A stretch of DNA of 64,000 nt from a bacterium (GCA_963681965.1 OY820579.1:1530882-1594881), one strand, 5' to 3'; numbered from the stretch's first letter, positions 1 to 31,034 are shown. Made by a program: numbers and translations. Notes: a model not told the origin generated them from the letters alone.

Positions 1-975
1 TGCCGACCATTCAAAGCAAATACCGTGCTGTGATTAAAAGTTGCCGGTCGCCAAGCGTCCCTTCCGGGATGACAGGTTCCGCACTGAGAAGTCGGAAATA
101 TCGTCGGATTGGCGTGATGCGACGGATTGGATGTTGTGTCGTAAGCAGTAGTATGGCAGCGATAACAATCGGTCGGAGTATTCGAATAGGTTCCGTGATG
201 ACAGTCGTTGCAAGCTGCGGTAGCATGTCTTCCCGACAGTGGATAGACGGTTGTGTGGTTGAAATTCGCTTGCGTCCATTGTCCGCCGCTGGTATGACAC
301 GTTCCACACTGCGCGGTTGGAAAGATCGTCGGGTTGGCACTATGCGATGGATTCGACGTCGTATCGTATTCGGTAGTATGACAATGATAACAATTAGTCG
401 GAGTATTCATATAGGTCCCGTGATGACACTCATTGCAGGTAGCGGTAGCGTGTCTTCCCGATAGTGGATAGACGGTTGTATGGTTGAAATTCGCTTGCGT
501 CCATTGTCCACCACTGGTATGACAGGTTCCGCACTGCGCGGTCGGAAATATCGTCGGGTTGGCACTATGCGATGGATTCGACGTCGTGTCGTACTCGGTT
601 CGATGACAAGAGTAGCACACCTGCGAAGTAGTATTATAGTTTCCGTGATGACAATCGTTACAACTTGCCGTGGCGTGTCTGCCTGTTAACGGATACACCG
701 CAGTATGATTGAAATTCGCCTGCGACCATTGTCCACCACTGGTATGACACGTTCCGCACTGAGATGTCGGATAAACCGTCTGATTGGTACGATGTGTTGG
801 ATTAGAGGTTGTATCGTATTCGGTTGTATGACAAGTGTAGCAATCGGATGAAGTTCCTGAATACCGCGTGGTGTGGCAACTATTGCATGCCGTCGGTTGC
901 GGAGATGCATGACGACCGCTTAATGGAAATAAAGTGTGAGCGTAATTCGCTGCAAACCAAGTTTGATCGGCGTCG
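1..975. repeat. Tandem 225-nt (75-codon) repeats inside the cytochrome gene; at least 4 units, cut by the window edge
   Basis: CGTCH motifs start at 69/294/519/744, CY-x-CH at 153/378/603/828 and CN-x-CH at 198/423/648/873. All are spaced by exactly 225 nt, and the translated units are near-identical. Confidence 0.85.
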
Positions 976-3590
976 CTATGGCAGGTTGCACATTGAGTGT
1001 TGAAGCCAGCTAACTGATGGTTTGGATTTGCTGAGCTATTGTAGACAGTCTGATGGCACCCTACGCAATTCGTTTTACGCGAATCAGAAGCTGGCGTTCG
1101 AGTCGTATGGCAATCGATACACAATTTTTGAGCATGCTTCCCTTGAAGTTGGTAATGTGCAACAGTGTTGTGGTCAAATTGCACATTTTGAGTCCAACCG
1201 CCGGTGTTGTGACATGTTCCGCAATTGGTACCGTTCGCCAATCGCCAGAGGTCGGATTGCGTTCTGGTCCAATGACAGGTATAGCAGTCGGTGGGGGTTC
1301 CGGCATACTGATTGTTCAAATGGCACTGAGTGCAAGTAACCTGAGTTGCGTGCCGTCCGGTAAGTGGAAAGTTGGTGTGAGTGAATGTGGTTTGCTCCCA
1401 ACTGGACGCCGATTGTTGATGACAGGTTGTGCAATCGCGGGGATATGTTAGATGAGCAGGATGTTCCGCACCGGCGCGAGTGAAATCGGAGGAATGACAC
1501 CCGTTACATTCTCTTGTCGTTCCGCTATAATGTCCGTTGACATGGCATTGTGTACAAGAAGTATAGGCAAGACTATGTTTTCCGACCAACGCATATGAAG
1601 TGTGGGAAAAATTCTGTGCACGCCAGTCTGGACCGCCATTACGATGACATTGTACACACTCTGTTTTCGCGAATCCGGCAGCAGCATGATTCGGATCCGT
1701 CATCCGATCGTATTCTTTCTGGTGGCAACTGTAGCATTCGGTGGATGCATCGGCAAATCGCTGGGTCTTGTGGCACTCAGTGCAATTTGTGGTCTGATGC
1801 TTATTCTGCAGCGGAAAATTCGTTCGTGTATGAGAGAATTGCAGGTCATTCCATCGCGAGGGTCGATGGCAATCGGTACAGGTTTGCGATAAATACCCTT
1901 GATGCACATCGGTATGACAACGATTGCATTCCATCGGTATTCCGGCATATTTCCCGGAACTATGGCACTGTTTGCAATCTACTGACTGATGTGTCCCTTC
2001 CAGTGGAAAACGGGTCAAGCGATGATTGAAAACTATGCCACTCTTCCAACCCATCGGAGAGTGACATTGTTCGCAATTCTTCCCGAAAGTACCATTGTGG
2101 TGATCGTTTTTCGCGTGGCAATTGTTACAACTTAATTCACTGGCAGCGAATTTGAATTTGCCATCCTTGTGGCATTCGGTACAATTTGTCGTTGCATGTT
2201 TCCCGATCAAAGCAAATTGTGTGGTTGCGTGTTGTGTTACACCGAAATTGGATGGTTTCCAGCTTTGATTGGAATGACATTGAGTACACTGCGAACTTAG
2301 TTGTCCCTTGTGCTGGTCTTTATGGCATCCCAGGCATTCACGTTGCTGTGCGGTAAACGCAAACCGGTTGTCTTTATGGCAATCGTTACAGGCGAGGGTT
2401 GCATGTTTCCCGGCTAATCGAAAATGCGACGTGTCATGCTGCGTTTGGGTAAATGTCGAGGGTTTGAAGTGATCGACCGTATGACAAATCTGGCAATTCG
2501 TCGATAATTGACCTTTGTGTTGATCTTGATGACAACTGTTGCACTTCTTTTGATCGGATGTGAATTTGAATCGGTTTTCCTTATGACATTTATTGCACGC
2601 TTGATCCAGATGTTTTCCTGCCAGTTGAAAACCGGTCTGATTGTGTTTAACGGTAGTATAAAGCGATGGAATAAATTTTGTCTCGTTGTGACACGTCTTG
2701 CAGTCGTTGCCGAGCTGTCCTTGGTGACGGTCGGTATGACAAGCCACGCAGGAACGCTGATTGAGAACTGGTTTTAGTTTTGGATTATGACAGGCATCGC
2801 AACGTAGTAGCGCGTGTGCTTCATTTAACGTAAAACCGGTTTTTGTGTGATCGAAACCGGCTAACTTATTCCATCCACCGGGAGAGTGGCATTCAGTGCA
2901 ATTTTGGTTGAATTTTCCTTTATGTGGATCGTTGTGACAAGACCGGCAGTCCTTGGATAGCGAATTCCACTTGTTTTCCTTATGGCATTGCGCGCAGGCA
3001 ACTTCAACATGTTTTCCTGTTAATTTCCAGGAAGTCTTACTGTGATCAAATTGTGGCGCCGGAGTCTTCCAACCGAGATTGGAGTGACAATCGAGACATC
3101 CTCGTTTTAAATCAGAACCATGTTGATCCTTATGACAACTCAGACATTCGGATTTTAAACCGGAATAGCTGTCTTTTTTCTTATGACATTCGGTACAATT
3201 CAGGGTTTGATGTTTTCCGTCTAATTTCCATCCGGTTTCTTCATGTTTAAATGCTTTGGGGTCCCATCGAATTAACCGTCCACTTACACCGATGTGTTCT
3301 TTATGACATGTTGCGCAATTGCGCGATTGTTTGGCGTGGTATCCACGATTCTTGTCGATACTGGTTCGAATCCCATCATGGCAAGCAAGACAAAGATTCG
3401 TCGATATTCCTTGTTTCCCGGACCCTTCATGACATGCGACGCAATTATTGGAACCCTCCAGCGAGGAGTGAACTTTGGTCAACGGTCCCGGAGAAATAAC
3501 ACTGGCTACGCTGAGTTTTATTGCTACTGCAGATAGCAGCAGTATAGCATAAAACAAGTATACCTTGGATCGGTGGAACGGAGGTTTCAT
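1..3590 (-). CDS. Giant multiheme c-type cytochrome built from cytochrome-c7-like triheme modules. The 3' end runs off the left window edge, and the gene is not in the supplied ORF track.
   Basis: Complement ATG at 3590. The N-terminus MKPPFHRSKVYLFYAILLLSAVAIKLSVASV looks like a signal peptide. I hand-translated 3590->2881, 540->301 and 90->3 with no stop. The track lists no minus-strand ORF in this frame (codon starts = 2 mod 3), as expected for a frame with no stop inside the window. I counted 48 in-frame CXXCH motifs (plus-strand RTG-RCA-N6-RCA, all starting at positions = 0 mod 3), from CVACH at 3429-3443 to CGTCH at 69-83. Modules read F-x-H..G(K/R)H..CxxCH..CxxCH..CxxCH. Confidence 0.9.
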   Translation of the reverse strand, partial: MKPPFHRSKVYLFYAILLLSAVAIKLSVASVISPGPLTKVHSSLEGSNNCVACHEGSGKQGISTNLCLACHDGIRTSIDKNRGYHAKQSRNCATCHKEHIGVSGRLIRWDPKAFKHEETGWKLDGKHQTLNCTECHKKKDSYSGLKSECLSCHKDQHGSDLKRGCLDCHSNLGWKTPAPQFDHSKTSWKLTGKHVEVACAQCHKENKWNSLSKDCRSCHNDPHKGKFNQNCTECHSPGGWNKLAGFDHTKTGFTLNEAHALLRCDACHNPKLKPVLNQRSCVACHTDRHQGQLGNDCKTCHNETKFIPSLYTTVKHNQTGFQLAGKHLDQACNKCHKENRFKFTSDQKKCNSCHQDQHKGQLSTNCQICHTVDHFKPSTFTQTQHDTSHFRLAGKHATLACNDCHKDNRFAFTAQQRECLGCHKDQHKGQLSSQCTQCHSNQSWKPSNFGVTQHATTQFALIGKHATTNCTECHKDGKFKFAASELSCNNCHAKNDHHNGTFGKNCEQCHSPMGWKSGIVFNHRLTRFPLEGTHQSVDCKQCHSSGKYAGIPMECNRCHTDVHQGYLSQTCTDCHRPSRWNDLQFSHTRTNFPLQNKHQTTNCTECHKTQRFADASTECYSCHQKEYDRMTDPNHAAAGFAKTECVQCHRNGGPDWRAQNFSHTSYALVGKHSLAYTSCTQCHVNGHYSGTTRECNGCHSSDFTRAGAEHPAHLTYPRDCTTCHQQSASSWEQTTFTHTNFPLTGRHATQVTCTQCHLNNQYAGTPTDCYTCHWTRTQSDLWRLANGTNCGTCHNTGGWTQNVQFDHNTVAHYQLQGKHAQKLCIDCHTTRTPASDSRKTNCVGCHQTVYNSSANPNHQLAGFNTQCATCHSDADQTWFAANYAHTLFPLSGRHASPQPTACNSCHTTRYSGTSSDCYTCHTTEYDTTSNPTHRTNQTVYPTSQCGTCHTSGGQWSQANFNHTAVYPLTGRHATASCNDCHHGNYNTTSQVCYSCHRTEYDTTSNPSHSANPTIFPTAQCGTCHTSGGQWTQANFNHTTVYPLSGRHATATCNECHHGTYMNTPTNCYHCHTTEYDTTSNPSHSANPTIFPTAQCGTCHTSGGQWTQANFNHTTVYPLSGRHATAACNDCHHGTYSNTPTDCYRCHTTAYDTTSNPSHHANPTIFPTSQCGTCHPGRDAWRPATFNHSTVFALNGR

Positions 3591-3922
3591 ATAACACCAC
3601 GAGCTGATACTGGATTTAGGGATTTAAATGAATGATTATCGTACAAGTAACGAAAAGATCTTCCACTCTGCAACGATTTATGTGATGATTTTGAAATAGA
3701 ATTCATATCATTTAACCGTGAATTCTACAAAACACATGTTAACAAGGTCGTCACTCGTTTTCCGATAGTAAAGAAGATTGAAAACTGTTACTTTGAATTT
3801 GGATTCGTAAAATGCGTGTTATTAATTGTTGATGTTTGTCACTTCAGAATGATGAAGAAATATATTGTATATATGTAATTAATTATTCAAAGTATAAATG
3901 AATATTTGATAGGGAACTGATT

Positions 3923-4621
3923 ATGTCGAAATTCGGACTGCTTGGAACCGCTCACCATCGCGAACCGTGGGAACGCTTTCTTCATGAGTCACAAATTGAA
4001 ACCGTTGCTATCGATCGTGCACCACTCCAATCGTTACACGAATTAGAAGTTGTGATTGTCGTCGATACCGATTTTCGATCATCGGTGTTACAAAAAATTT
4101 GGTTATTCGAAGCGCATATGGATCCAACTGCACCAATCTTTGCGAATCTGGTTGCCAGCAATGCCGCACATCTTGCTGCACTCTGTACGAAGCATCCCGA
4201 ACGTGTTCTGGGGTTTGCCTGTTGTCCGCCATTGGGTAAGTATGCCATCGAAATTTCTCGAACCGAATTGACAAGCGAGACGACTTTTCAAGCGGGTTTG
4301 AACTATCTGGAACAAATGCATCTACCGATACATCTAGTTGCCGATCGTGCCGGAGGGATCTTTTCTCGAACCTTGGCAATGTTAATCAATGAAGCTTGTG
4401 TGATGTTACAGGAAGGAATTGCAGATTCTGATAGCATCGATTGTGCAATTCGCCATGAATCCGATTTGCCGCATGGTGCACTGGATTGGGGTGAAGCGAT
4501 CGGCTCCGCGTATCTTCTAGACGTACTGCAAGGTATTTTCGATGAGACTGGAGATAGTCGTTATCGACCGTCTGCCTACTTAAAGCGTTGTGTCGATCTG
4601 AATATATCGTTGAAGCATTGA
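3923..4621 (+). CDS. 3-hydroxyacyl-CoA dehydrogenase-like protein, probably non-catalytic
   Basis: The C-terminal half (LINEACVMLQEGIADSDSIDCAI...GDSRYRPSAYLKRCV) closely resembles the C-domain of 3-hydroxybutyryl-CoA dehydrogenases. The N-terminus is short and lacks the GxGxxG motif (GLLGTAHH). The HFFNP catalytic-His region reads GFACCPP. Confidence 0.6.
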   Translation: MSKFGLLGTAHHREPWERFLHESQIETVAIDRAPLQSLHELEVVIVVDTDFRSSVLQKIWLFEAHMDPTAPIFANLVASNAAHLAALCTKHPERVLGFACCPPLGKYAIEISRTELTSETTFQAGLNYLEQMHLPIHLVADRAGGIFSRTLAMLINEACVMLQEGIADSDSIDCAIRHESDLPHGALDWGEAIGSAYLLDVLQGIFDETGDSRYRPSAYLKRCVDLNISLKH

Positions 4622-6042: not shown

Positions 6043-7323
6043 TCATTTCTTCAAAAGAGCTTCGATCCACTGCACAACTCGTTCAGTGGCACCAGCCTCT
6101 TCGGCAATAATTTTCAAGGATGCGTCGGCAGCTCGTTTGCGAGATTCGGGATCGATCAACCACTGCTTGAGCATCTCTTTCCATTCGGAAGCATCGCGAT
6201 CGACTACTATGCCGCCGCCACAATCGGCAAACAGGCGTGCTTCGCGCGACATCGTGATATTGGGTCCGTATAATAGTGGTACTCCGAAGACCGCCGGTTC
6301 GAGCACGCTGTGAACGCCAGCACCGAAACCACCGCCGACCCAAGCAATCGCCGCGCCGCGATAAATCGACGACAATACCCCTTGTACATCGACCAGGAGT
6401 GCATCGGCATCGTTCAATTGCGAAAGACCATTTGAATAGCGGACGACATTGAAACCTGAGTTCTGTAATCGCTGTTCGGCACCCAGGATATGTTCTTCAT
6501 CGCTTTCGTGTGGTACTGCGATCAGTCGGAAAGGAATCTTCGCTTCGCGATAAGTTTCAAGAGCTGAGCAAAGCAACGTTTCGTCCGGTGTCCAACCACT
6601 TCCGAGTACAATTGTCGGAGCTACTTCGCACCATTTTCGCAATGACGGGTCGCGCGCATCGGCTTTTGCTGCAGCCGCTCGAACACGGTCGTAACGGGTA
6701 TCGCCAGTAATACGGATTTCCGTGCGATGACCGATCAAAATGCGAAATCGTGCAGCATCTTCTTTGGCAATCGCGCCGATACCACTGAGCGAACCGAGTA
6801 ACGAACGTTGGAATGATCGCGCGATGGCAATATTGCGACGTGAATCGGTACGGAAATTTCCGCTCTGCAAGATGACCGGAATCTTCCGGTCGCGCGCTTG
6901 CCAAACAAATTCCGGCCAGATATCGTGTTTGGTGATCACAACGGCGAGTGGTTTTGCAGCATCGTAAAACCGTTTAACATCTTTGTGCAAATCGATCGGT
7001 GCCCAATACCACGGAAACCGCGTATTCCCGGTGTTGCTCCGGCGACGGTAAAGCGAGGGTGAACCGACCGTTAGAATTACCGGAAATCCTAATTCTTGCA
7101 TTCGCTCCATCACCGGACGCGCGGCTTCGAATTCACCGACCGAGGCGCAATGGAACACGATACCATTCTGGGGAATATCTTTCCATGTTTCGTTGCGACG
7201 ACCGCTGATTGCTTCTTCCAATTTTCGATCGAAATGCGAACCGAATTTGGCGGCGCCAAACAGAATAGGACCGAGGATGCGCCAAAGCGAGCGCCAAGCG
7301 GGATGTGGTGCGTGTCCGATCAT
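6043..7323 (-). CDS. waaA: 3-deoxy-D-manno-octulosonic acid (Kdo) transferase
   Basis: Typical length (426 aa) and KdtA-type N-terminal motif FHCASVGEFEAARPV. Overlaps the upstream GT9 gene by 4 nt. Confidence 0.8.
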   Translation of the reverse strand: MIGHAPHPAWRSLWRILGPILFGAAKFGSHFDRKLEEAISGRRNETWKDIPQNGIVFHCASVGEFEAARPVMERMQELGFPVILTVGSPSLYRRRSNTGNTRFPWYWAPIDLHKDVKRFYDAAKPLAVVITKHDIWPEFVWQARDRKIPVILQSGNFRTDSRRNIAIARSFQRSLLGSLSGIGAIAKEDAARFRILIGHRTEIRITGDTRYDRVRAAAAKADARDPSLRKWCEVAPTIVLGSGWTPDETLLCSALETYREAKIPFRLIAVPHESDEEHILGAEQRLQNSGFNVVRYSNGLSQLNDADALLVDVQGVLSSIYRGAAIAWVGGGFGAGVHSVLEPAVFGVPLLYGPNITMSREARLFADCGGGIVVDRDASEWKEMLKQWLIDPESRKRAADASLKIIAEEAGATERVVQWIEALLKK

Positions 7324-8324
7324 GGTTCCTGTAACATTGTTGATAACTGGTTATAAACCATCTCTACGCTAATTTCCTTCATGCAGCGATGATGCCCCAA
7401 TGGACAGAATTTACCGCCATGTGCAGAACAGGGACGACACCACAAATTGCGCTCCATCACGATTATCCGAGAACGAAACGGTGCAAATCCAAAAGCCGGA
7501 ATGGTCGGACCGAATAGCGCAATACCCGGTCGATTGGTGCCTGCCGCGATATGCATTGCCGCCGAATCGTTACTGACTATCGCGCGGCAGTGCGAGATCT
7601 CGCTGATCAACTCATCGATCGATAACAGTTTCTTTGGAATGAAATCGGCATCCGAACCAGCACGTTCCTGTTGAATCCGCTTTCTGGCTTCGGCTTCTTC
7701 CGGTCCGAGTATCCAGAAGATGCCATATCCTTTCATTGAAAGCAATCGTGCCAATTCTAACCAGCGATCCAACTGCCACTGTTTGGTATAATGCTTCGAT
7801 CCCGGTGCCAGTCCGATATATTCGCGATCAATTGGTAGGAGTCGTTCGGTTTTATTCTCGGAAAGTACCGGTATTTCCAAACCGCGACTATCGTCGACCA
7901 CACCCCACGATTCAGCAGCACGTAAATACCGCAATGGAACCGGTGGTTCATTATCCAGCCAATGCCCTTTGAAGAGAATCTGCAGTGTTCGCTGCCATCG
8001 TGGTGGTGCTGCTTCCGCTTTATTCGGTGCCGGAATGCCGCGCGCCAATTGCCGCGAGCGACGCGAGGCTTGAAGATCGAGAACGTACTCAACATGTCCG
8101 TAAGAATCAACCCGGTCGATCGGTAGATCTTCGTGTTTCTTCCATGCAATGATAACATCGAGCAGATTGCTCGAATGCCAGATTGGCGCATTTTCCGCTT
8201 TCGTCACCCACATGATGCGATGATTCGGAAACCGGTTGCGCAATCCGCGAAACACCGGACCCAGCAACAGGCAATCGCCTAGCGATGAGAATCGGATCAC
8301 GACGACGATTGGCAGCGGTGGCAT
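7320..8324 (-). CDS. Glycosyltransferase family 9 (LPS heptosyltransferase-like)
   Basis: N-terminal RFSSLGDCLL motif and C-terminal SNDSAAMHIAAG motif, both typical of GT9 ADP-heptose:LPS heptosyltransferases. Confidence 0.75.
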   Translation of the reverse strand: MPPLPIVVVIRFSSLGDCLLLGPVFRGLRNRFPNHRIMWVTKAENAPIWHSSNLLDVIIAWKKHEDLPIDRVDSYGHVEYVLDLQASRRSRQLARGIPAPNKAEAAPPRWQRTLQILFKGHWLDNEPPVPLRYLRAAESWGVVDDSRGLEIPVLSENKTERLLPIDREYIGLAPGSKHYTKQWQLDRWLELARLLSMKGYGIFWILGPEEAEARKRIQQERAGSDADFIPKKLLSIDELISEISHCRAIVSNDSAAMHIAAGTNRPGIALFGPTIPAFGFAPFRSRIIVMERNLWCRPCSAHGGKFCPLGHHRCMKEISVEMVYNQLSTMLQEP

Positions 8325-10520: not shown

Positions 10521-12696
10521 CACAATATGAATTACTTCAACAGGACGATCTTCTGTGTCTTCGCAAACGCACCCGCCTGCAATTGCACAAAATAGGTTCC
10601 ACTGGCTAATCGCGAACCATCGAGCCGCACGCGATACGATCCGGCACGCTGCTCACGCTGCACCAGCGTCGAGACTTCACGTCCGGTGAGGTCGTAGAGA
10701 CGAAGATCGACGCGAGACAAGGACGGGAGGGTGTAGGAAAGAGTGGTGGTGGCGTTGAAGGGGTTCGGATAATTCTTAACTAGAAGTGTGGAATTTGGGT
10801 GAAGTGAAGACTCCTGAACCGAAGTAGTATCGATAGTGAATTGGGTGATGAAGCAGTCATATTGACCATTACTCGATGTATCAAAACATGATGATGAAAT
10901 TGGGAAATTAGCACTTGATGTTAAGCCAATGGCGCATATTTTACTGATTGATATGCAACAAATATCCTCTCCGCCATCGTCGCTCGATCCTCCAAGGAAT
11001 GTACTATAAAAATGATTGGGATTATCTAATGAAATACGAACGACAAAACAGTCATTTGAACCTCCACTATAAGACTGTTGCAACGCGTTCATTGTTGTCG
11101 GAAAATTTGTGCTAGAAGTTGTTCCAGTAACAATAATTTCATAAGAATTACGAGCAACTGCCATACCAATATCGTTATCAGTGCCACCAAAAAATGAACT
11201 ATATAATAGATGAGACAAATTATTATTTATAACAGTAACAAAACAATCATAATTTCCATTTTGGGTTGTATCGAATGCATTTTCAGTATGGGGATAATCA
11301 CTACTTGCAGTAACACCGACAGCGATAATGATACTATCCTGCGACAATGCTATATCATGAATTCTATCCCCACCGGAACCACCGATATAAGTACTCTTCA
11401 TTAAAATGCTACCATCGTGACTCACTCGTGATATGAAGGCATCTACTCCTCCATGAAAAGATGAATCGAATGCATCGCTTGAGCACGGAAAATCAGAGCT
11501 GTTTGTGTAACCAGCGAAGACTATCGATTGATCTAACCGAAGTTGAATTATCGAATTACTTACTTCATCATATGAGCCACCGAAATATGTACTGAATAAC
11601 AAAGCAGAACGATTCATAGATAACTTTGTGATGATACAATCGTAACCACCATTCGTTATCGGATTATAGGTGCCGGTAGTAGTAGGATAATCAAGACTTA
11701 ATGTGCTTCCACATATGCTACAGCTACTATCCGCTTCATTCGCGATAATAGAATATCCTTCATCTACGTACGAACCTCCGATGAAACTACTGTAAACAAG
11801 CTGCGTTCCGGTAGGATTTATTTTTAGTACAAAGCAATCATCAGTTCGATATCCGGAATGCGAACGGCAATAAGCATTCGTTGTCGTAGGAAAGTTGTCA
11901 CTTTCAGTGGAACCGGTCACATAGATACAATTCTGTGAATCAATTGTCAATCCATTGCTGAAATCATTGAATACACCACCGAGATAAGTACTGAATTGCA
12001 GGAGTGACAAGGTTGAATCCAACTCGGAAATGATACAGTCCGATAATCCGGCATTCATCCGTTCGATCGTTCCCGGAGTAGTAGGATAGTCAAATCCACT
12101 GGATGAACCTGCAATGACGACCGATCCCGTACTGGTAACTCCAAGTGCTAATGCTTCGTCGTTACCCGTACCACCCACAAACGTCGAATAGATCTGTGGA
12201 TCGATCCGCAGCGTCTGCGATTTATCATACCCATTCGGTAAATCGATTGCGAAGACATTCTCAGCCACGATTGTGAATTGTGCTGTGACATCGTTTCCAT
12301 GAGTGCCATTCGTAGTTGTTTGATATGCTCCCGGAATCGACATCCGGAGTTCGCCGAGGGAGGTGGGAAGCGAGAGTTCATTCGATAATCGGAGGTCGGT
12401 GCTTCCAATCCTTCGCACACCATCTGGATTTGCTTCGGATCGGCACCGGGATGCGCGACGAAATCGAATTCGAGATGACCTTTGCTCTCATACCATTCGA
12501 CATCGATTCCATTCCACACCTCGTGATACACAATGCGTGTAAAGTTGCGGCAATCCGGTGCCCACTTCGAGGAATCATTCCCGAGGAAATAATTGTTGTG
12601 CCATGATAATTCACCTTGTGCATTGATCCATTTTGCGGAGGCGTATTTCCGTAGGTCGGAATTTATTCCGACATCCTCTTGTGTCGTGCATTTATC

Positions 12697-13222: not shown

Positions 13223-14284
13223 GGCATAAACGCAAAAATGTGTGCTGGGATCGCTACTTAGGTGTCATTTGAAAGTACCATTTGAAGTAATTGAATCGTT
13301 TCTGTTCTTTGAGTCCGCGGTGGTTCCGATACTTCGCTTTCAATCGCGAAAAGTATCCTTCCAACGCATTGGTTGACGTTGGTATGGTTGGTTCGTCGAG
13401 ATAATGGAACATATCCGGGATCGCCTTTAACAGCATACTTCTGGCACATTTCAGGTCGCTTGCGATCCAACCGCCAGTCGGTGCCGCGACCGCTTTGCCA
13501 TAGCGCTTTTCCCATTGTTGTGTTTTTTTTATAAAGCTGTCGCGTTTGGCTTTAGTATCGATCTCAACGACCGTCGTAAACAGTTCCGCTAGTTTCCTGG
13601 CATCGGTTCTTTTAGGATTGCGACGACACCACCGTAATCCCTGACGTTGGATGTGTACAAGGCAACGCTGCACCTTGATCTGCGGCCATAATTCGCGCAG
13701 AATCCGTATTACATGCGGGTTTCCGTCGACAGTGCAACTGATCGGGTTCAGGCCGCGTGCGATAAGAGGTTGCAAGAAGCGTCGAACCTGGTCGGCAACG
13801 TTTTCTTTTACATTGTAAGAACCGTCGACGATCGTCGTCGACGCGCCATCCATCAAAGCGACGATCGATGCGCTCCGTGTCAGAAACGTCCCGTCGATCA
13901 ATAGATGACGGTGATGCGAAAGCGAACCGAAATCGTCCGGCGGTGGCTCCGACAGCCTTTGTTGGATCGTGTTCCATAACGAGCGTGGACTGCAGCCGCT
14001 TTGGCAGCAGAGTTGACGGATCGAATATCCTTCGGCGATCCAAAGCTGAAACCAGTCGGGAGATCGACGCTCATGGCGGAATGAATGCCGACAAGTACGA
14101 CAAAACCAGCGTTGACGACCGTTACTGTAATGACCGTTTTTTTAGATCCGTGCAGAGGCAAATTGGACAATGTCGAAGAGCCATGAAAGTGCACCTAAGT
14201 GATTTACGTTAGCAAATGGTTCTTATAATAGCAAAGAAAATCTTGAGTTACTAGCGATCTCAGCACACATTTTTGCGTTTATGC
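13223..14284 (-). mobile_element. Insertion sequence (~1,061 bp) with 33-bp terminal inverted repeats and an 8-bp target duplication; IS1595-family-like
   Basis: Left end GCATAAACGCAAAAATGTGTGCTGGGATCGCTA (13224-13256). The reverse complement of 14252-14284 reads GCATAAACGCAAAAATGTGTGCTGAGATCGCTA (32/33 identical). TCGCAATG flanks both ends (13215-13222 and 14285-14292). Confidence 0.8.
13254..14184 (-). CDS. DDE transposase with N-terminal zinc ribbon, interrupted by an apparent +1 frameshift in an A7 run
   Basis: ATG at 14184 gives MALRHCPICLCTDLKK. After the homopolymer (plus-strand T7 at 14137-14143) the next frame reads NGHYSNGRQRWFCRTCRHSF...LLIDGTFLT and joins ORF 13254..13901 (QRCLVH, TNALEGYFSRLK motifs). 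Confidence 0.7.
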
Positions 14285-23545: not shown

Positions 23546-23824
23546 GGATCCAGTGCAAAAATAATTTGTCGGTACCGATGATAGAAGAGACGCATCATTC
23601 CCTTTCTCATTGATCTGTAAAGTGAGTGAAATTAGAAAGATTCATTTAGTAAAAATTACCAACTCTACTAGATCAGCTCCTTTATATTGGTTACTCACTC
23701 TTAAACACGCATCTACATACTTCGACAGCCAATGCTCCATAACTGTACAATAATGTAACATTAATAGACACTCGCAAGTACTTAAAAACGCAACCGACTA
23801 TTGATTATTAATGATATAGAGTTG

Positions 23825-23840
23825 TGGAACAGACTTTGCT
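23825..23840 (+). promoter_or_regulatory. Sigma-54 (-24/-12) promoter of the HlyD/ABC/FtsX operon
   Basis: TGGAACAGACTTTGCT compared with the consensus TGGCAC-N5-TTGCW. The GG-to-GC spacing is exact. It lies 27 nt upstream of ATG 23867, with GGAGA at 23856-23860. Confidence 0.6.
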
Positions 23841-23866
23841 CTCCAAAATGCATCTGGAGACAATAC

Positions 23867-25120
23867 ATGGATCGCATCCTCGAAAAAAAGAAGTGGCACC
23901 AGAAGCGGTCATTTCGCATCGGTTTACTACTGACATCAACCATTCTGATTCTTTATCTGGTCGTATTTGTTTACTTCCGAATGGGGCAACGCGTATCGGT
24001 GGATCGCTTGACCATTTCCACCGTCACCGAAAGCGAATTTCAGGAACTGATCGCTGCAACTGGTATCGTGCAGCCGATACGAACGATTTATCTGGACGTG
24101 GTCGAAGGGGGACGGGTCGAGGAAATCTTCGCCGAAGATGGTCAGGAATTGAAAGCGGGACAACCAATCCTGCGAATGGCAAATTCCAATTTGGTGCTCG
24201 ATATCATGTACCGCGAAGCGCAACTCTACGAACAGGAAAACAATCTTCGCAACACCCGGATCTCGATGGATCAGCGCCGTCTCGATCTCCAAATCCAACT
24301 GAACGACCTCAATTACGAAGCCTCGAAACAAGCACGCGACAAACTTACTGCCGATGCGCTCCACAACAAAAATTTGATTTCGACACAAGAGTATCGCGAT
24401 ATCGACGATAAGGCGAGTTATTTGGCAAAGCGCCGTGATCTACTGACGGAGAGCGCATTGAAAGATTCCTCCTTCCGCGCAGAACAGGTTCGACAATTGG
24501 AAGAATCGATGAAGCGGATGGAAAATAATCTCGAATTGGTGAAAAAGAATCAAGAGAATTTAATCGTCCGGTCACCGATCGACGGACAATTGTCGGCGCT
24601 GAGTGCCGAAATCGGTCAAACGAAACCTCAGGGGCAGCGCTTGGGTCAAATCGACGATATGACCGCCTTCAAGATTCGTGCGACGATCGATGAACACTAT
24701 GTCGCGCGCGTGACGTTGGGAAAGCGAGCATCTTTTTCCTTCAATGGCAAAGAGTGGCAATTGGAAGTAAAGAAAATTTATCCCGAAGTAAAAAACGGTC
24801 AATTCGAAGTCGATCTGGCGTTTGTGAAAGAAGTACCTGACGGTATTCGTCGCGGGCAATCGGTGCAGTTGTCACTCGCGCTAAGCGATCCTGCGAAAGC
24901 ATTAATCCTTCAGCGCGGTGGATATTTCAACTCGACCGGCGGACAGTGGGTATTCGTCCTTGATAAAAGCGGAACCCGCGCTCACCGACGGACGGTTAAA
25001 TTTGGACGGCAGAACTTAACGGAATATGAAATTCTAGACGGATTACTAGCAGGCGAAAGTGTCATCACATCGCAATACGATGGATTTCTATCCAGCAATC
25101 AATTGATTTTGACTAAGTGA
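23867..25120 (+). CDS. HlyD-family periplasmic adaptor (MacA-like membrane fusion protein)
   Basis: N-terminal TM segment (IGLLLTSTILILYLVVFVYF), a long coiled-coil middle and beta-barrel C-terminal blocks. Start moved to ATG 23867, downstream of the promoter. Confidence 0.8.
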   Translation: MDRILEKKKWHQKRSFRIGLLLTSTILILYLVVFVYFRMGQRVSVDRLTISTVTESEFQELIAATGIVQPIRTIYLDVVEGGRVEEIFAEDGQELKAGQPILRMANSNLVLDIMYREAQLYEQENNLRNTRISMDQRRLDLQIQLNDLNYEASKQARDKLTADALHNKNLISTQEYRDIDDKASYLAKRRDLLTESALKDSSFRAEQVRQLEESMKRMENNLELVKKNQENLIVRSPIDGQLSALSAEIGQTKPQGQRLGQIDDMTAFKIRATIDEHYVARVTLGKRASFSFNGKEWQLEVKKIYPEVKNGQFEVDLAFVKEVPDGIRRGQSVQLSLALSDPAKALILQRGGYFNSTGGQWVFVLDKSGTRAHRRTVKFGRQNLTEYEILDGLLAGESVITSQYDGFLSSNQLILTK

Positions 25121-25130
25121 GGATGTAACC

Positions 25131-25826
25131 ATGTCAATGCTTCAAATTAAAAAATTAACCAAAATCTATTCCACTGAGGAAATCGAAACGGCAGCGTTGA
25201 ACGAAGTCGATTTCGAAGTCCGGCAAGGGGAATTCGTCGCAGTGATGGGACCGTCCGGATGCGGTAAATCGACCCTGCTGAACGTATTGGGACTCCTCGA
25301 TAGCCCATCGACTGGTGAATATCTCTTCATGGGTGAGGATGTTGCGAAGTACAATGAGAAGCAACGCGCAGTCGTCCGCAAAAAACATATCGGATTTGTA
25401 TTCCAGAGCTTCAATCTGATCGATGAATTGTCGGTTTTCGAAAATGTCGAACTACCATTGCTCTATTTGAACGTTCCTGCCGATGAGCGCAAGAAACGAG
25501 TGAATGAAGTACTGGAACAGATGCAAATCATGAGCCGGAAAAATCACTACCCGCAACAACTGTCCGGTGGTCAGCAGCAGCGAGTCGCCGTCGGTCGTGC
25601 GGTAGTCGCGAAACCGAAATTGATCCTTGCCGACGAACCGACGGGAAACCTCGACTCATCCCACGGCGATGAAGTGATGTCGCTATTGTCGGAGTTGAAC
25701 AATGCCGGAACTACGATCGTGATGGTCACGCACTCGCCGTCGTATGCCGAGCGCAGTCATCGCGTTGTTCACCTGTTCGATGGTTCGATCGTTACCGAAA
25801 ATACTTTGTCGAGACCTTTGATATAG
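25131..25826 (+). CDS. ABC transporter ATP-binding protein (MacB/LolD-type)
   Basis: GPSGCGKST Walker A, LSGGQQQRVAVGRA signature and LILADEPTGNLD Walker B. Confidence 0.9.
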   Translation: MSMLQIKKLTKIYSTEEIETAALNEVDFEVRQGEFVAVMGPSGCGKSTLLNVLGLLDSPSTGEYLFMGEDVAKYNEKQRAVVRKKHIGFVFQSFNLIDELSVFENVELPLLYLNVPADERKKRVNEVLEQMQIMSRKNHYPQQLSGGQQQRVAVGRAVVAKPKLILADEPTGNLDSSHGDEVMSLLSELNNAGTTIVMVTHSPSYAERSHRVVHLFDGSIVTENTLSRPLI

Positions 25827-25845
25827 CAGATATACGGAGGAAATA

Positions 25846-26121
25846 ATGCCGGATATCACCATTCCGCTACCGAAATGCGGTAACGGTAAAACAGCGGAAA
25901 TTACTATCGAAGTAAGTTGTAAATCGACGCGAGAAACTTTCAAAGTAATGATGGTTTCACGCGAAGAGGAATCCGAAGAAGGTCGAATTCAACGGGTGCA
26001 ACAAATCGTCGATACCGAAACGAAAGAGTGGCAATTGATCACAATCGGCGATCCAGGCATTACCTGTATTCCGATCTTGTTTCGGCATCGCGATACGACC
26101 GATAATCCAACGAATGCATGA
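25846..26121 (+). CDS. Small hypothetical protein (91 aa) inside the export operon
   Basis: Strong SD (GGAGGAAATAATG). Fills the ATPase-permease gap with 19-nt and 33-nt spacers. No signal peptide, no recognised family. Confidence 0.55.
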   Translation: MPDITIPLPKCGNGKTAEITIEVSCKSTRETFKVMMVSREEESEEGRIQRVQQIVDTETKEWQLITIGDPGITCIPILFRHRDTTDNPTNA

Positions 26122-26154
26122 TCCTGGGATAACGACGATGGGAGCAACGATTTT

Positions 26155-28563
26155 ATGAATGCACACTTTATCCGGGTAGCAATCCGAAATATTCGGAGAA
26201 ATCTAACGTTCTCGCTGATCAACATCGCGGGATTGGCGATCGGTATGGCAGTTTGCTTGACGATTATGCTCTACCTCCAATTTGAATTGTCGTTCGATCG
26301 TTTTCATCCCGATCTAAATCGAACATACCGCATTATTACTCGTGACAATACCCCCGGTTCGTCGTTGAGTTACATCGGCTTGGCACATGTTCCGCTCGGT
26401 GAAACCGCACAGCATACTTATCCCGAAGTCGAAAGTATGTGTCGTGTGTCAAAACCGGTTGAATTGGTCTTAACTCTTGAATCGAATCGGCAAATTCACA
26501 TCGATCAATACCGCTCAGTCGATTCTAATTTCTTTCAATTCTTCAATTTCAAATTATGGAAGGGTTCCCCCGACAAAGTATTTCTGAGTCCTTCGGCGTT
26601 GGTTATCTCCCGAAGCATGGCGAAGAAAATGTTCGGCGAGGAAGAGGCATTTGGAAAGACGGTAAAATCCGGCGACGGCAGAAGCTGGAAGATCGACGGA
26701 ATCGCCGATGATCCACCAGCGAATAGTCACATCCAGTTTGAAGCAATGACCAGCTTTGTCTCCTACGATACCGAAGTTCGCAAACAGCCGAAAGAAATCA
26801 TCGATAAAATCGAGAAAGCCAATTGGAAAGTACTTGGGTATCCCACCTATCTAAAAATGAAACCGGGTGCTTCGATTGCTGGTTTCGATAAAAAGATGTA
26901 CAAAATTCTCAACGACAATGGAGTTGAAAAAAAATTCGTACCCTTCTTACAACCGATGAAAGAAACGCATCTATTTTCCACCAATATCGTTTACGACTAC
27001 AACGACAAGAAAAACGATGCCTCACTCATTTACACGTTAGCAGGTATTGCAATATTGATACTGACTATTGCTGCCGTCAATTATATCAATCTTAGTACTT
27101 CGCGTGCCTCGCTTCGGGCAAAAGAGGTGGGTCTGCGCAAAGTAGTCGGTTCCGATCGCAAGCAGCTCATTCAGCAATTTCTGGGTGAATCGGTATTCAT
27201 ATCGCTGATTGCTTTGCTGATTGCGATTTCGATTGCGGAGTTATTACTCCCGTGGATCAATGAGATCACCGGCTATCAGTTACACTTAAGCATCTTTAAA
27301 AATGGCTGGTTGGTGCTTTGCATGGTGGGTATGGTTGCGTTTACCGGTTTGTTGGCAGGGTTGTATCCGGCATTCGTCATGTCGTCTTTCAAACCGGTGA
27401 TCGTGCTGAAAGGAGCGTTTCACTCCGGTTCGAAAGGTCGAATTCTTCGAAGGCTGCTGGTTGTCTTTCAATTTGCTCTGTCGATTGGAATTATCTGTAG
27501 CACGATCATTGTCAATCGTCAGATCCGCTACATCCAAACCAAAGATCTGGGGTACAATCGCGAGCAAGTATTAAAACTGAATATGACGCATCCACGGTTC
27601 GGGCAATCGATGAAAGCGTTTAAAAACGAATTGAAAGCATCACCATACGTTGTCGATTGTTCCAATTCGCAAGTTGTGCCGCCAATGAATTACTTTCATC
27701 TGCAAATTCGCAATGAGCATGATAGCAAGTATGAAGCGATTTTGTGGAATCAATACCCGGTCGATTATCGGTTTATCTCGACTTTGAAAATGAAAGTCGT
27801 ATTGGGACGCGAGTTTGACCCGAACCTTCCATCCGATACAACCGATGCAGTAATGATCAATGAAGAAGGGGTGCGCAACCTCGGTTTGAAAGACCCGATC
27901 GGGAAACGAATCTATGCCGATGCCGATACGATCCCGCTTCGAATTATCGGTGTGCTGCAGGACTTTCACACGGCTTCAATGCGTCAGAAAATTGAACCGA
28001 TGGTCATGTTCCTCTGGAGCCAACCGATGCAATTCGTGAGTATCCGACTCAAGGGTGGTTCGGTAAAGACTGCAGTTGAGAATGTTGAATCGATCTGGAA
28101 GAAAGTATATCCCGGTTTTCCGTTCGAATACAAATTCCTCGATGAAGAATTCGATCGGTTGTACCGGCAAGATATCAATTTTGCTAAGATCACCAATGCC
28201 TTTTCGATTCTGGCAATCTTTATCGCATGTCTTGGGTTATATGGTTTAGTATCGCATACGACCGAACAACGTCGAAATGAAATCGGTATGCGTAAAGTAT
28301 TGGGCGCTTCTTCGGGACAGATTGTTTCGATACTGGTATTCGATTATTTGAAATGGATTGCCTTGGCAAATGTCATCGCATGGCCGATTGCGTATTGGGT
28401 AAGCGAACGGTGGCTCTCCGGATTTGAATACCACATCGTTCAGCCGCTCGCAATCTATCCGTTAATCGGTATCGGGGCATTGGCAATATCGGTTCTCGCA
28501 GTCTATTCGCATGTATTGCGTGCTGCTTCCGCCAATCCCATCAATTCATTGCGCTACGAATAG
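26155..28563 (+). CDS. ABC transporter permease, FtsX/MacB family (two FtsX domains)
   Basis: 802 aa with an N-terminal TM segment, a MacB-type periplasmic domain and two four-helix FtsX blocks (..RKVVGSDRKQL.., ..RKVLGASSGQI..). Confidence 0.85.
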   Translation: MNAHFIRVAIRNIRRNLTFSLINIAGLAIGMAVCLTIMLYLQFELSFDRFHPDLNRTYRIITRDNTPGSSLSYIGLAHVPLGETAQHTYPEVESMCRVSKPVELVLTLESNRQIHIDQYRSVDSNFFQFFNFKLWKGSPDKVFLSPSALVISRSMAKKMFGEEEAFGKTVKSGDGRSWKIDGIADDPPANSHIQFEAMTSFVSYDTEVRKQPKEIIDKIEKANWKVLGYPTYLKMKPGASIAGFDKKMYKILNDNGVEKKFVPFLQPMKETHLFSTNIVYDYNDKKNDASLIYTLAGIAILILTIAAVNYINLSTSRASLRAKEVGLRKVVGSDRKQLIQQFLGESVFISLIALLIAISIAELLLPWINEITGYQLHLSIFKNGWLVLCMVGMVAFTGLLAGLYPAFVMSSFKPVIVLKGAFHSGSKGRILRRLLVVFQFALSIGIICSTIIVNRQIRYIQTKDLGYNREQVLKLNMTHPRFGQSMKAFKNELKASPYVVDCSNSQVVPPMNYFHLQIRNEHDSKYEAILWNQYPVDYRFISTLKMKVVLGREFDPNLPSDTTDAVMINEEGVRNLGLKDPIGKRIYADADTIPLRIIGVLQDFHTASMRQKIEPMVMFLWSQPMQFVSIRLKGGSVKTAVENVESIWKKVYPGFPFEYKFLDEEFDRLYRQDINFAKITNAFSILAIFIACLGLYGLVSHTTEQRRNEIGMRKVLGASSGQIVSILVFDYLKWIALANVIAWPIAYWVSERWLSGFEYHIVQPLAIYPLIGIGALAISVLAVYSHVLRAASANPINSLRYE

Positions 28564-28619
28564 CAATACGTTTCAGGATCACTGTCGATGAAAATTGATT
28601 AAAAAGTGAGGATCCAAAA

Positions 28620-31034
28620 TTGATTAAGCACTATTTCACGATTGCCACTAGAAATCTGATGAAAAATAAACTGTTTTCACTGATCAATCTCTCGGGATTG
28701 GCAATGGGAATGGCGGCTTGTATTCTCATTTTACTTTACTTGCAATTCGAACTCTCATTTGATCGGAATATCCCGAATTCGGATCGAGTATATCGTATTC
28801 TGACAATCGATAAAGGGCAGGGTGTATCTAGTCAGTATGTGGCGATCGCTTTGCCTCCATTAGGACCAACGCTCGTACAATCATTCCCCGAAGTCGAATC
28901 TTATTGCCGTCTCACCGGTGGTGGACCACAAGTATTGGAGGTCACACCGACTCGTCAAATCGAAGTCAATATTCAACGTAGTGCCGATTCAACGTTATTC
29001 GATGTTTTTGGATTCAAATTATTGAAAGGGAATCCCAAAACTGCTTTGACAAAACCGTATACCGGAGTGATCACTGAATCGCTTGCAAAAATTGTTTTCG
29101 GATCCGCCGATCCGATGGGAAAAACCATTAAATTGAGTTCGGGTTTGCAAGCGACAGTCACCGGAGTTGCCGAAGATCTTCCGGAAAACAGTCATATCAC
29201 ATTCGATATCGTGCTTTCGATGAAAACGCTTGAAGCCTTGCAAAAGGCGGGTTTACCACCGGGAAACACCGGACCGACTTTTCTTGAAAGTTGGACCAAT
29301 TTAGGTCTTCCGACATATGTCCGGTTGAAACAAGGCAGCTCAGCGGCAACGTTCGAAAAGAAAGTTAACAAGTTGTATCGCGAAAAAGGGGTACCGGAAC
29401 CATGGATCCCTTCAGTTCAACCAGTTCAAGATGTCCACTTGAAATCGACCGGAATCATCTTCGATACGAATGCGTTAAAAGGAGATGCATCGTCAATCTA
29501 CACGCTGTCGGCGGTGGCAATCCTTATCCTGTTGATTGCATCGGTTAATTACATGAATCTCAGTACCGCAAGAGTCACATCCCGAGCGAAAGAAGTCGGT
29601 TTAAGGAAAGTTGTCGGATCGGAACGGGCGCAATTGATTTGGCAATTTATCGGCGAATCGATCCTGTTGGCGACTCTCTCAATGATTGTGGCGATTGCAT
29701 TCGCAGAACTCATGTTGCCCTGGTTGAATGGATTGACTGGTTATCACCTCAAGATGAATTACTTCCATAACCCGGTATTAATTCTCTGCGAAATTGGATT
29801 GATTTTGATCGTGGGCGTATTGGCAGGATTTTACCCGGCTTTGGTACTTTCAGGTTTCAAACCGATCGATGTATTAAAAGGTGCTTTCCACTCGTCTCAT
29901 AAGGGTCAATCGTTACGACGGATACTAGTGGTTTTTCAGTTTACACTCTCGATTGGGCTGATCTGTGGAACGATTGTAGTGAATAAGCAATTGCACTTCA
30001 TCTGGACGAAAGACCAAGGGTATAATCGCGAACAGGTATTGATCTTGAATCTCGGCAGTGCAAAAGTAGCGCCGCGAGCGTCAGCAATTCGGGCAGATCT
30101 AAATGCATCGTCATTTGTGGTTTCCACCGGAACAACGGTTTCCACACCGGGTAGTCAATTCAGTCGAAATAATGCCAGACTAGAAAACGATCCAAGTACA
30201 ATGACGCGCATCTGGAGTCAAACTGTCGTCGATTACGATTTCATGAAAACACTGGACATGAAAATCATCAAAGGGCGAGGCTTCTCCCGCGATTATCCGG
30301 GAGATTCGCTTCAATCCGTTGTGATTAACGAAGCAGCTGCCAGAGAGATGGGTACGAGCGATCCGGTAGGAAAGAAAATTTATCAAGGTAGCGCAGATTC
30401 GGTTGGCGCGACTGTAATCGGGGTAGTAAAAGATTTCCATTTCGCTTCGATCCGCGAAAAAGTCGAACCGATGATCATCTTTCTCTTTCCTCGCGAATTA
30501 AACCTACTCTGTGTAAGACTAAAATCCGGATCGGTAAAGGCTGCGATGGTAAATGTCGAATCGATTTGGAAAAAACAGTGTCCGGGTTATCCATTCTCTT
30601 ACCGATTTATGGATCAAGATTTCGAACGGATGTACCGTCAGGAAATCAACTTCTCCAGTATCGTCAATGCGTTTTCCGGTCTGGCAATCTTTATTGCCTG
30701 TTTGGGTTTGTACGGTCTTGCATCGCACAGCACCGAGCAACGTCGCAAGGAAATCGGTATTCGAAAAGTCATGGGGGCATCGGTTATTACGATCACACGA
30801 TTATTGATTATTGATTTTATCAAGTGGGTTCTACTTGCCAATGTGATTGCGTGGCCGGTAGCATATTGGGTGTCGGACCGATGGTTGGCAAATTACCAAT
30901 ATCGAATCGATCAATCTTTACTCATCTTTCCGTTAGCAGGAACGATAGCTTTGTTGATTGCGATAATCTCGATTTATCTCCATGTCTGGCGCGCTGCGCG
31001 GGAGAATCCAATCAAATCGATACGCTACGAATAA
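28620..31034 (+). CDS. ABC transporter permease, FtsX/MacB family (paralog of the preceding gene)
   Basis: 804 aa, collinear with the 26155..28563 product (same N-terminus IKHYFTIATRNLMKNKLFSLINLSGLAMGMA, same C-terminus NPI.S(I/L)RYE). TTG start as in the track. Confidence 0.85.
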   Translation: MIKHYFTIATRNLMKNKLFSLINLSGLAMGMAACILILLYLQFELSFDRNIPNSDRVYRILTIDKGQGVSSQYVAIALPPLGPTLVQSFPEVESYCRLTGGGPQVLEVTPTRQIEVNIQRSADSTLFDVFGFKLLKGNPKTALTKPYTGVITESLAKIVFGSADPMGKTIKLSSGLQATVTGVAEDLPENSHITFDIVLSMKTLEALQKAGLPPGNTGPTFLESWTNLGLPTYVRLKQGSSAATFEKKVNKLYREKGVPEPWIPSVQPVQDVHLKSTGIIFDTNALKGDASSIYTLSAVAILILLIASVNYMNLSTARVTSRAKEVGLRKVVGSERAQLIWQFIGESILLATLSMIVAIAFAELMLPWLNGLTGYHLKMNYFHNPVLILCEIGLILIVGVLAGFYPALVLSGFKPIDVLKGAFHSSHKGQSLRRILVVFQFTLSIGLICGTIVVNKQLHFIWTKDQGYNREQVLILNLGSAKVAPRASAIRADLNASSFVVSTGTTVSTPGSQFSRNNARLENDPSTMTRIWSQTVVDYDFMKTLDMKIIKGRGFSRDYPGDSLQSVVINEAAAREMGTSDPVGKKIYQGSADSVGATVIGVVKDFHFASIREKVEPMIIFLFPRELNLLCVRLKSGSVKAAMVNVESIWKKQCPGYPFSYRFMDQDFERMYRQEINFSSIVNAFSGLAIFIACLGLYGLASHSTEQRRKEIGIRKVMGASVITITRLLIIDFIKWVLLANVIAWPVAYWVSDRWLANYQYRIDQSLLIFPLAGTIALLIAIISIYLHVWRAARENPIKSIRYE

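Follow-up and report, generated by a model that had tools for sequence, protein, structure and literature searches.

The closest described counterparts of the system reported here are the PCC3 gene sets (porin-cytochrome gene clusters), which were defined bioinformatically in the genomes of Fe(II)-oxidising bacteria by He et al. 2017 (He, Barco, Emerson & Roden), for example Slit_0867-0870 of Sideroxydans lithotrophicus ES-1, and whose function is unproven. Such a set encodes a porin, an extracellular cytochrome (median of 34 hemes, up to 85), a periplasmic cytochrome (median of 21 hemes) and an inner-membrane protein of ~300 amino acids (aa). The inner-membrane protein of PCC3 and PCC4 has five transmembrane (TM) segments, with SGXXG on TM4 and WX3HX13H on TM3 and TM5, and two b hemes have been proposed for it (He et al. 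2017). According to Hoover et al., 21-27 hemes could span a periplasm. Here we describe a four-gene cassette that begins at the left end of a 64,000-nucleotide stretch of bacterial DNA (GCA_963681965.1 OY820579.1:1530882-1594881; this whole stretch is called the window below). Its first gene encodes a giant multiheme cytochrome in which two cytochromes, separate in related clusters, are joined into one polypeptide. Judging by the published signature, we consider the cassette PCC3-like.

Other known systems share single aspects with this locus. In MtrCAB of Shewanella the periplasmic decaheme MtrA lies inside the MtrB barrel and contacts the surface cytochrome MtrC. GSU1996 of Geobacter sulfurreducens is a dodecaheme protein of four c7-type domains (Protein Data Bank (PDB) entry 3ov0), in which 12 hemes extend over ~12 nm and one heme per domain has His-Met ligation. 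Giant cytochromes as such are known from published surveys, which report proteins with 40-53, 51, 85 and 112 heme motifs, and the window protein belongs to this known, uncharacterised kind. Of the same kind are the proteins of Saprospiraceae and other Bacteroidota counted by Wasmund et al. 2024 (up to >100 heme motifs) and the bioanode-community proteins of Arbour et al. 2020 (30-53 hemes). The taxa overlap with ours; Lewinellaceae and Saprospiraceae proteins are among the cytochrome homologues.

A sequence-only reading of the window had pointed to a frame on the complement strand, open from an ATG at 3590 to nucleotide 3 and holding 48 CXXCH motifs in about 1,196 codons. This proved accurate, as the minus-strand frame is free of stop codons over all 1,196 codons, against 28-100 stops in each of the other five frames, and a regular-expression recount gave 48 CXXCH and no CX3CH or CX4CH motifs in the window part. 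All 96 cysteines of this part lie inside the motifs, the spacing of which resolves into the 16 regular triplets that had been proposed, and the quoted module peptide FDHSKTSWKLTGKH... is found at residues 181-236. At the DNA level, the recount also bore out that all 48 plus-strand RTG-RCA-N6-RCA patterns in 1-3590 fall in one single frame; only 2 more occur across the other 60 kb. Among 2,000 shuffled versions of the protein the number of CXXCH motifs averaged 0.68 and never exceeded 5. The gene is absent from the list of open reading frames (ORFs) of the window because ORFs running past the window edge were not listed. The features at this end of the window are:

3..3590, minus strand: multiheme cytochrome c gene, first 1,196 of 1,432 codons, an open frame 100% identical to the database protein P0001
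3504..3590, minus strand: predicted signal peptide, Sec type I, residues 1-29, read from sequence
2112..3503, minus strand: head, residues 30-493, with exactly 20 CXXCH motifs, homologue of a separate conserved 20-heme cytochrome
3..2111, minus strand: tail, residues 494-1196 in the window (to 1432 in the full protein), homologue of a variable large cytochrome
69..835, minus strand: 225-bp tandem DNA repeat, 3.4 copies with 81% matches (Tandem Repeats Finder)
3591..3922, no strand: intergenic region of 332 bp that separates the cytochrome start from a divergent 3-hydroxyacyl-CoA-dehydrogenase-like gene (3923-4621), presumed promoter site

Extending the contig to the left completed the gene. 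In the surrounding public contig (locus L001, in which the window position equals 13591 minus the L001 position) the stop codon lies ~709 nt past the left window edge, and the protein database holds an identical full-length protein, P0001, of 1,432 aa from a 4.34-Mb contig. The complete protein carries 56 CXXCH motifs and one CX4CH, which reads CITTACH and is replaced by CXXCH at the same place in orthologues. This makes 57 heme-binding motifs at 25 residues per heme, arranged in 19 triheme c7-type modules of 65-84 aa each, of which the window holds 48 motifs and 16 modules. At the N-terminus, MKPPFHRSKVYLFYAILLLSAVAIKLSVA|SVISPGPLTK, a basic n-region precedes a hydrophobic core and an A-x-A-like site, in keeping with the signal peptide that had been suggested for it, while a check for a lipobox found none, because the first cysteine does not occur before residue 50. 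The mature N-terminus ISPGPLTKxH is conserved in the homologues P0002 and P0003 and in 20-heme cytochromes.

The c7-type triheme identity put forward in the sequence-only reading was upheld by family profiles. PF14522 (Cytochrome_C7) matched the window part with E=7e-66 and the full protein, in 19 stretches, with E=1.2e-69 and 230.5 bits (cutoff 24.8), and NCBIfam TIGR04257, the c7-type nanowire triheme domain, scored 56 bits against a cutoff of 40. TIGR03508 (decahem_SO) stayed far below its cutoff on the cytochrome (27.7 bits against 192), and a Pfam scan of the full protein returned cytochrome families only, leaving a Gly/Pro-rich C-terminal tail. A single-sequence phmmer search of the cytochrome against PDB sequences gave no match; the module profile alone matched, to HmcA (1z1n, 1e-8), the nine-heme cytochrome (1duw, 2e-8), GSU1996 (3ov0, 5e-6), MtrA (6r2q_A, 5e-5) and 1rwj (0.011). 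The protein is thus described as a polymer of c7-type triheme domains, with heme attachment predicted.

When modules 2-17 were aligned (n=16), the histidine of FxH, that of GKH and the three CXXCH motifs were invariant, and a third extra histidine was present in most. The complete protein contains 125 His and 5 Met, a composition which, together with the invariant extra histidines, fits bis-His hemes; His-Met ligation as in GSU1996 is unlikely here, given how little Met the protein has. Modules 2-8 are rich in Lys and show the pattern ...CH-xD-x-H-xG, and from module 9 onward the sequence is rich in Thr, Ser, Asn and Tyr, with the pattern CYxCH...EYD...NPxH and an inserted NPxH loop. The 225-bp DNA repeat corresponds to modules 13-16 (residues ~920-1174), which are near-identical 75-aa triheme units and, judging from this likeness, have been duplicated recently as whole triheme units. 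Such duplication would explain the heme counts of 57, 57 and 60 among orthologues, and of 10-83 in related clusters.

A boundary within the protein was located by comparison with related clusters, where the conserved 20-heme cytochrome and the variable large one are encoded by separate genes. Residues 8-493 of P0001 align over the full length of every one of the 64 20-heme ORFs, at ~36% identity, and its first 130 residues score a median of 85 bits against 20-heme N-termini compared with 40 bits against internal matches in large cytochromes. The last 189 residues match the C-termini of large cytochromes. Large cytochromes of middle size, starting at residue ~20 of their own sequence, pair with P0001 from residues ~427-533, and the alignment continues to the C-terminus of both. 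Among the 74 ORFs sharing this N-terminus, 58 carry exactly 20 motifs, and long forms (56-60 motifs) are found in the window lineage and in one acidobacterial protein only. Single ORFs of the same architecture, of 1,430 and 1,524 aa, occur in independent assemblies at 63% and 51% identity. On these alignments, the conserved 20-heme cytochrome and a variable cytochrome are fused into one polypeptide in the window lineage, with 20 motifs in the head and 37 in the tail, 28 of the latter within the window.

Downstream of the cytochrome gene on the same strand of L001 lie genes for proteins of 428, 308 and 483 aa, so that the cytochrome is the first of four. The start of the 428-aa protein gene overlaps the cytochrome stop by 4 nt and the two genes are translationally coupled. 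The same four genes are found in different flanks in the relatives at 63% and 51% identity. Neither the 428-aa nor the 308-aa protein belongs to a Pfam or NCBIfam family.

The 428-aa protein has a signal peptide and is a probable outer-membrane beta-barrel, to judge from features of its family: a C-terminal ...G[YI]RF, which in most homologues of ~540 aa closes with Phe, and hydrophobicity that alternates in 22.7% of sequence segments compared with 9.5±2.5% in shuffles. The usual form, of ~540 aa, carries an N-terminal domain of ~80 aa that is missing from the 428-aa protein. In the ~540-aa outer-membrane proteins (loci L005-L087) this conserved domain reads V-Y-x-S-x-x-N-V-Y...VGDTL... and gives faint FlgT_C-like matches in two members. 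The lineage with the domain-shortened barrel protein is also the lineage with the fused cytochromes.

In the 308-aa inner-membrane protein we identified W106-x3-H110-x13-H124, S147-G-x-x-G151 and W277-x3-H281-x13-H295. Residues H110, H124, S147, G148, G151, W277, H281 and H295 are invariant in 17 diverse sequences of the family, and the position of W106 is variable. An AlphaFold2 model (predicted local distance difference test, pLDDT, of 81.8) has five long transmembrane helices and a long cytoplasmic helical insert. By the positive-inside rule we infer that the first histidine of each HX13H pair (H110, H281) is close to the cytoplasmic side of the membrane and the second (H124, H295) close to the periplasmic side; two such transmembrane pairs are the arrangement expected for two stacked b hemes. 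Other members of the family give faint sub-threshold matches to PF01794 (two members, 19 bits compared with a cutoff of 28) and to DUF4405.

The fourth protein, of 483 aa, is a flavoprotein. It has a hydrophobic helix at the N-terminus, and further a Zn ribbon, a 2x[4Fe-4S] domain and an FAD/NAD(P)H domain resembling that of YpdA and thioredoxin reductase. As the hydrophobic helix is followed by a basic stretch in essentially all inspected homologues, the catalytic part of the flavoprotein should lie on the cytoplasmic face. One protein from Joint Genome Institute metagenomes (P0241, 418 aa) combines in one chain two-thirds of the inner-membrane protein, from its N-terminal side, and the C-terminal half of the Pyr_redox flavoprotein, and may be a natural fusion, or else a deletion or gene-call artefact.

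The cassette is widespread. The sequence-only reading had called a chain of this length unusual, which did not hold, as the cytochrome has 1,848 homologues at E<=1e-3, many of them 1,300-2,090 aa long and most labelled hypothetical. Their hosts include Ignavibacteria, Saprospiraceae/Lewinellaceae, Calditrichaeota, Gemmatimonadetes, Acidobacteria, Chloroflexi and others. The inner-membrane protein family comprises 4,825 clusters at 50% identity (E<=1e-3), or 1,095 at E<=1e-30. Species-representative genomes were scanned with an alignment of this protein, which was found in at least 587 species-level genomes (at least 587 loci), and the best 80 loci were kept. These belong mainly to Ignavibacteriota, Bacteroidota (Chitinophagales, Saprospiraceae, Cyclobacteriaceae, Bacteroidales, Lentimicrobiaceae, Draconibacterium), Calditrichota (including a Caldithrix abyssi metagenome-assembled genome, MAG) and neighbouring phyla, and also include Zixibacteria, KSB1, Marinimicrobia, Thermoanaerobaculia and one Ectothiorhodospiraceae. 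A Melioribacteraceae locus was found as well. The source genome of the window is not one of the best 80, within which the highest identity to the inner-membrane protein of the window's cassette is 37%.

Co-occurrence was counted in those loci, 30 in number, whose 10-kb flanks were complete. The flavoprotein and a cytochrome of at least 10 hemes were each present in 30/30, and a recognisable homologue of the 428-aa protein in 19/30; across all 80 loci the flavoprotein gene was found in 70, often adjacent to or overlapping that of the inner-membrane protein. Besides the inner-membrane protein and the flavoprotein, a typical cluster encodes two cytochromes, a conserved one of ~530-580 aa with 20 hemes and a variable one with 10-83 hemes, together with an outer-membrane protein of ~540 aa. 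The components are likewise complete, in other orders and with two cytochromes, in an Ignavibacteriaceae locus (20 + 80 hemes) and a Lewinellaceae locus (23 + 79 hemes). In the Lewinellaceae MAG (L006:16843-20013) a gene for a fused ResB/CcsA, a System II cytochrome c synthase of 1,056 aa, lies between the barrel-protein and inner-membrane-protein genes, and looks like a dedicated maturation enzyme for a cluster of ~100 hemes. The Ectothiorhodospiraceae locus (L029), the only proteobacterial one in the best 80, has the same inner-membrane family, flavoprotein, 20-heme cytochrome and barrel protein. At L029:12432-16840, between its 20-heme cytochrome and the 611-aa barrel homologue, the place of the variable cytochrome is held by two ORFs (607 and 997 aa) with fewer than 4 CXXCH each.

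Set against PCC3, the 308-aa protein shows the full inner-membrane signature (~300 aa, five TM segments, SGXXG and two WX3HX13H), the candidate outer-membrane protein has barrel-like features, the spacing of 25 aa per heme falls within the 22-39 of PCC3 cytochromes, and the related clusters pair a ~20-heme cytochrome, whose PCC3 counterpart is predicted to be periplasmic, with a variable large one. The differences are several. The two separate cytochromes are absent in the window lineage, which has one fused 57-heme gene and a barrel protein without the N-terminal domain; the hosts are Ignavibacteriota, Bacteroidota, Calditrichota and neighbours, whereas PCC3 is mainly proteobacterial; the conserved cytochrome has 20 hemes rather than 21, 24 or 27; and the membrane-anchored Fe-S/FAD/NAD(P)H oxidoreductase, constant here, lies outside the published definition of PCC3.

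With GSU1996 the cytochrome shares tandem triheme c7-type modules of ~65-80 aa, but it has 19 of them compared with 4, and it is encoded in an operon with barrel, membrane and flavoprotein partners. The likeness to MtrCAB lies in the logic of a barrel-sheathed heme chain and in a weak profile similarity of the cytochrome to MtrA (6r2q_A, E=5e-5) and PF22113. Unlike MtrCAB, however, the locus has a barrel protein without a match to MtrB/PioB and no lipoprotein surface cytochrome, its hemes are grouped in c7 triplets and not in the pentaheme units of MtrA/MtrC, and its electron input would not be CymA and quinol. The NADPH oxidases and ferric reductases (NOX/FRE) are similar only in the proposed principle, by which electrons pass from NAD(P)H to flavin, to two stacked b hemes held by two TM His pairs and to an outside acceptor. 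Here the functions would be divided between two separate proteins, with an added 2x[4Fe-4S] domain, the PF01794 matches are sub-threshold and neither HHalign nor Foldseek gave support, so that we see in this a resemblance in logic only and not family membership. The surveys of Wasmund et al. 2024 and Arbour et al. 2020 counted motifs, and the cassette, the pair of 20-heme and variable cytochromes and the fusion are undescribed there. Nor did the searched literature contain a description of a cassette with a constant flavoprotein in these phyla, of the conserved 20-heme unit or of the one-polypeptide fusion with a shortened barrel protein.

The sequence-only reading had proposed that the cytochrome may be a long-range electron conduit, an idea which is strengthened by the barrel-like, inner-membrane and flavoprotein genes now seen to its left. 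We think it probable that the protein is the envelope-spanning heme wire of a PCC3-like conduit, of which the direction and localisation are inferred. According to this proposal, the cytochrome would be exported by Sec as a chain of 19 c7-type triheme modules carrying 57 c-type hemes. Electrons would pass from cytoplasmic NAD(P)H to the FAD and then the Fe-S clusters of the flavoprotein, and would cross the inner membrane via two b hemes of the 308-aa protein. The 20-heme head would then carry them through the periplasm. From there the 37-heme tail would take them into the barrel, or through it, to an acceptor outside, for example minerals of Fe(III) or Mn(IV), humics or partner cells. The whole would act as a quinone-independent respiratory or redox-balancing outlet. 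Scaled from GSU1996, 57 hemes would span ~55-60 nm. The broader claim, that many Bacteroidota, Ignavibacteriota, Calditrichota and neighbouring phyla (at least 587 species-level genomes) share a quinone-independent, split-NOX-like extracellular route with a new di-heme-b family of membrane proteins, and that in the window lineage the fused 57-heme wire threads the barrel, from the inner membrane to beyond the surface, is one that we put forward tentatively and ourselves find doubtful.

Several observations weigh against the proposed heme wire. A single polypeptide that is both periplasmic and extracellular poses an export problem, and around the acidobacterial protein, which is fused in the same way, no cassette of this sort is present within 8 kb. 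AlphaFold2 modelling of the 428-aa protein reached a pLDDT of 33.6, from an alignment of only 3 sequences, and the barrel family has neither a Pfam match nor a PDB sequence match, a family-profile search of the PDB included. For the 308-aa protein there was no Pfam match at E<=1, and the best Foldseek hit against the PDB had E=0.44. Kinship of the inner-membrane protein with E. coli MsrQ, HyaC or YodB was considered and rejected, the HHalign probability being at most 1.6% (0.3% for MsrQ). Because no known family or fold matched, the predicted binding of b hemes derives only from the four invariant histidines. In addition, the proteobacterial inner-membrane protein was proposed to exchange electrons with quinones and not with a flavoprotein (He et al. 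2017), and the sole PCC3 expression data that we found, those of Zhou et al., indicate that PCC3 of ES-1 is down-regulated on Fe(II), its role being unproven.

Alternative explanations concern the gene itself, the direction of electron flow, the location of the protein and the source of electrons. The long ORF could be an artefact in which two adjacent cytochrome genes were joined by misassembly or a frameshift, or else a pseudogene in decay. Where the cytochromes are encoded by two genes, the median overlap between the 20-heme gene and the cytochrome ORF that follows is 22 nt, so that one small indel could join the two. Yet the single ORF recurs in independent assemblies at 63% and 51% identity, for which reason we do not regard the fusion as an artefact, and 1,432 stop-free codons, with every cysteine of the window part inside a heme motif, make this explanation exceedingly improbable. 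Alternatively, the conduit could run inward, with Fe(II), reduced minerals, cathodes or partner cells as the electron source. The original definition of PCC3 came from Fe(II) oxidisers, and PCC3 was modelled as an uptake route (He et al. 2017), multiheme wires are reversible in principle and the architecture gives no direction, but the partner conserved on the cytoplasmic side is an NAD(P)H/FAD/Fe-S enzyme, the sampled carriers are mostly Bacteroidota and Ignavibacteriota of heterotroph type, and PCC3 of ES-1 is down-regulated on Fe(II). Reduction of NAD(P)+ (~-320 mV) by electrons at the level of Fe(II), against the membrane potential, is moreover unfavourable, and taken together we judge inward flow to be unlikely.

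The 57-heme protein could also be wholly periplasmic, as a wire or a capacitor, with at most its tip docked in the barrel in the manner of MtrA in MtrB. It has one Sec signal, no lipobox and no C-terminal domain of the type IX secretion system (T9SS), partial export of a fused polypeptide would be difficult, the barrel partner is shorter, at 428 aa without the ~80-aa N-terminal domain, and capacitor roles have been proposed in the literature for such proteins. Against this, a protein extended like GSU1996 would measure ~55-60 nm, far more than a periplasm is wide, the tail has as its homologue in two-gene clusters of PCC3 type the cytochrome for which an extracellular position was predicted, and the barrel gene is translationally coupled to that of the cytochrome; a purely periplasmic protein therefore seems to us improbable, to about the same degree as an inward-running conduit. 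Slightly better placed, if still rather unlikely, is the possibility that the inner-membrane protein is a quinol/quinone oxidoreductase which ties the conduit to the quinone pool, the flavoprotein being auxiliary, for redox maintenance or assembly. This is the published hypothesis for the inner-membrane proteins of PCC3 and PCC4, and proteobacterial PCC3 is described as four-gene sets in which no flavoprotein is listed (He et al. 2017). The flavoprotein, however, is present in 30/30 full-flank loci and 70/80 overall and has its own membrane anchor, and a gene for an Fe-S protein lies beside that of the inner-membrane protein also in PCC4 subgroup II (He et al. 2017).

A scan for sigma-70 promoters and terminators across the operon found sites no commoner than by chance, with no promoter signal recognised in the intergenic region 3591..3922, and an Rfam scan of the window gave zero matches. 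On the minus strand at 6043-8324, beside smpB and a polyprenyl synthase gene, are genes for a 3-deoxy-D-manno-octulosonic acid (KDO) transferase (Glycos_transf_N) and a heptosyltransferase (Glyco_transf_9), enzymes that build the lipopolysaccharide core, from which it follows that the host is a diderm that makes lipopolysaccharide. At 10532-12418 and 13254-13901, both on the minus strand, are the gene of a T9SS cargo protein (SBBP repeats and Por_Secre_tail) and an adjoining Transposase_mut (IS256-type) gene, unrelated to the cytochrome. It is this neighbouring cargo gene that accounts for the T9SS remark in the sequence-only reading, and the connection fell away once the complete protein was seen to have no Por_Secre_tail domain. 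The cytochrome was accordingly rejected as T9SS cargo: the full-length Pfam scan found no C-terminal sorting domain in it, while the true neighbouring cargo shows PF18962. At 23801-33997 on the plus strand, an HlyD-type adaptor, two tandem MacB/FtsX-type permeases of ~800 aa and a sigma-54 response regulator form an ordinary efflux/export locus. Further on are an AcrB-type resistance-nodulation-division pump at 42259-45396 and a 1,236-aa hybrid histidine kinase (SBP_bac_3, PAS) at 46226-49936.

Giant multiheme cytochromes number in the thousands in bacteria of soil, sediment and wastewater without known mineral or humic respiration, and none has been characterised. If the proposal of an outward heme wire is true, it would provide a concrete pathway of extracellular electron transfer in abundant heterotrophs (Saprospiraceae, Ignavibacteria, Calditrichia), which would matter for the cycling of iron and carbon and for bioelectrochemical systems. 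The flavoprotein, as a constant partner, offers a biochemical handle, since it predicts NAD(P)H-driven reduction of the heme wire, which differs from the quinone-linked model of PCC3, and the fused form would be a natural experiment on how a heme wire crosses the outer membrane.

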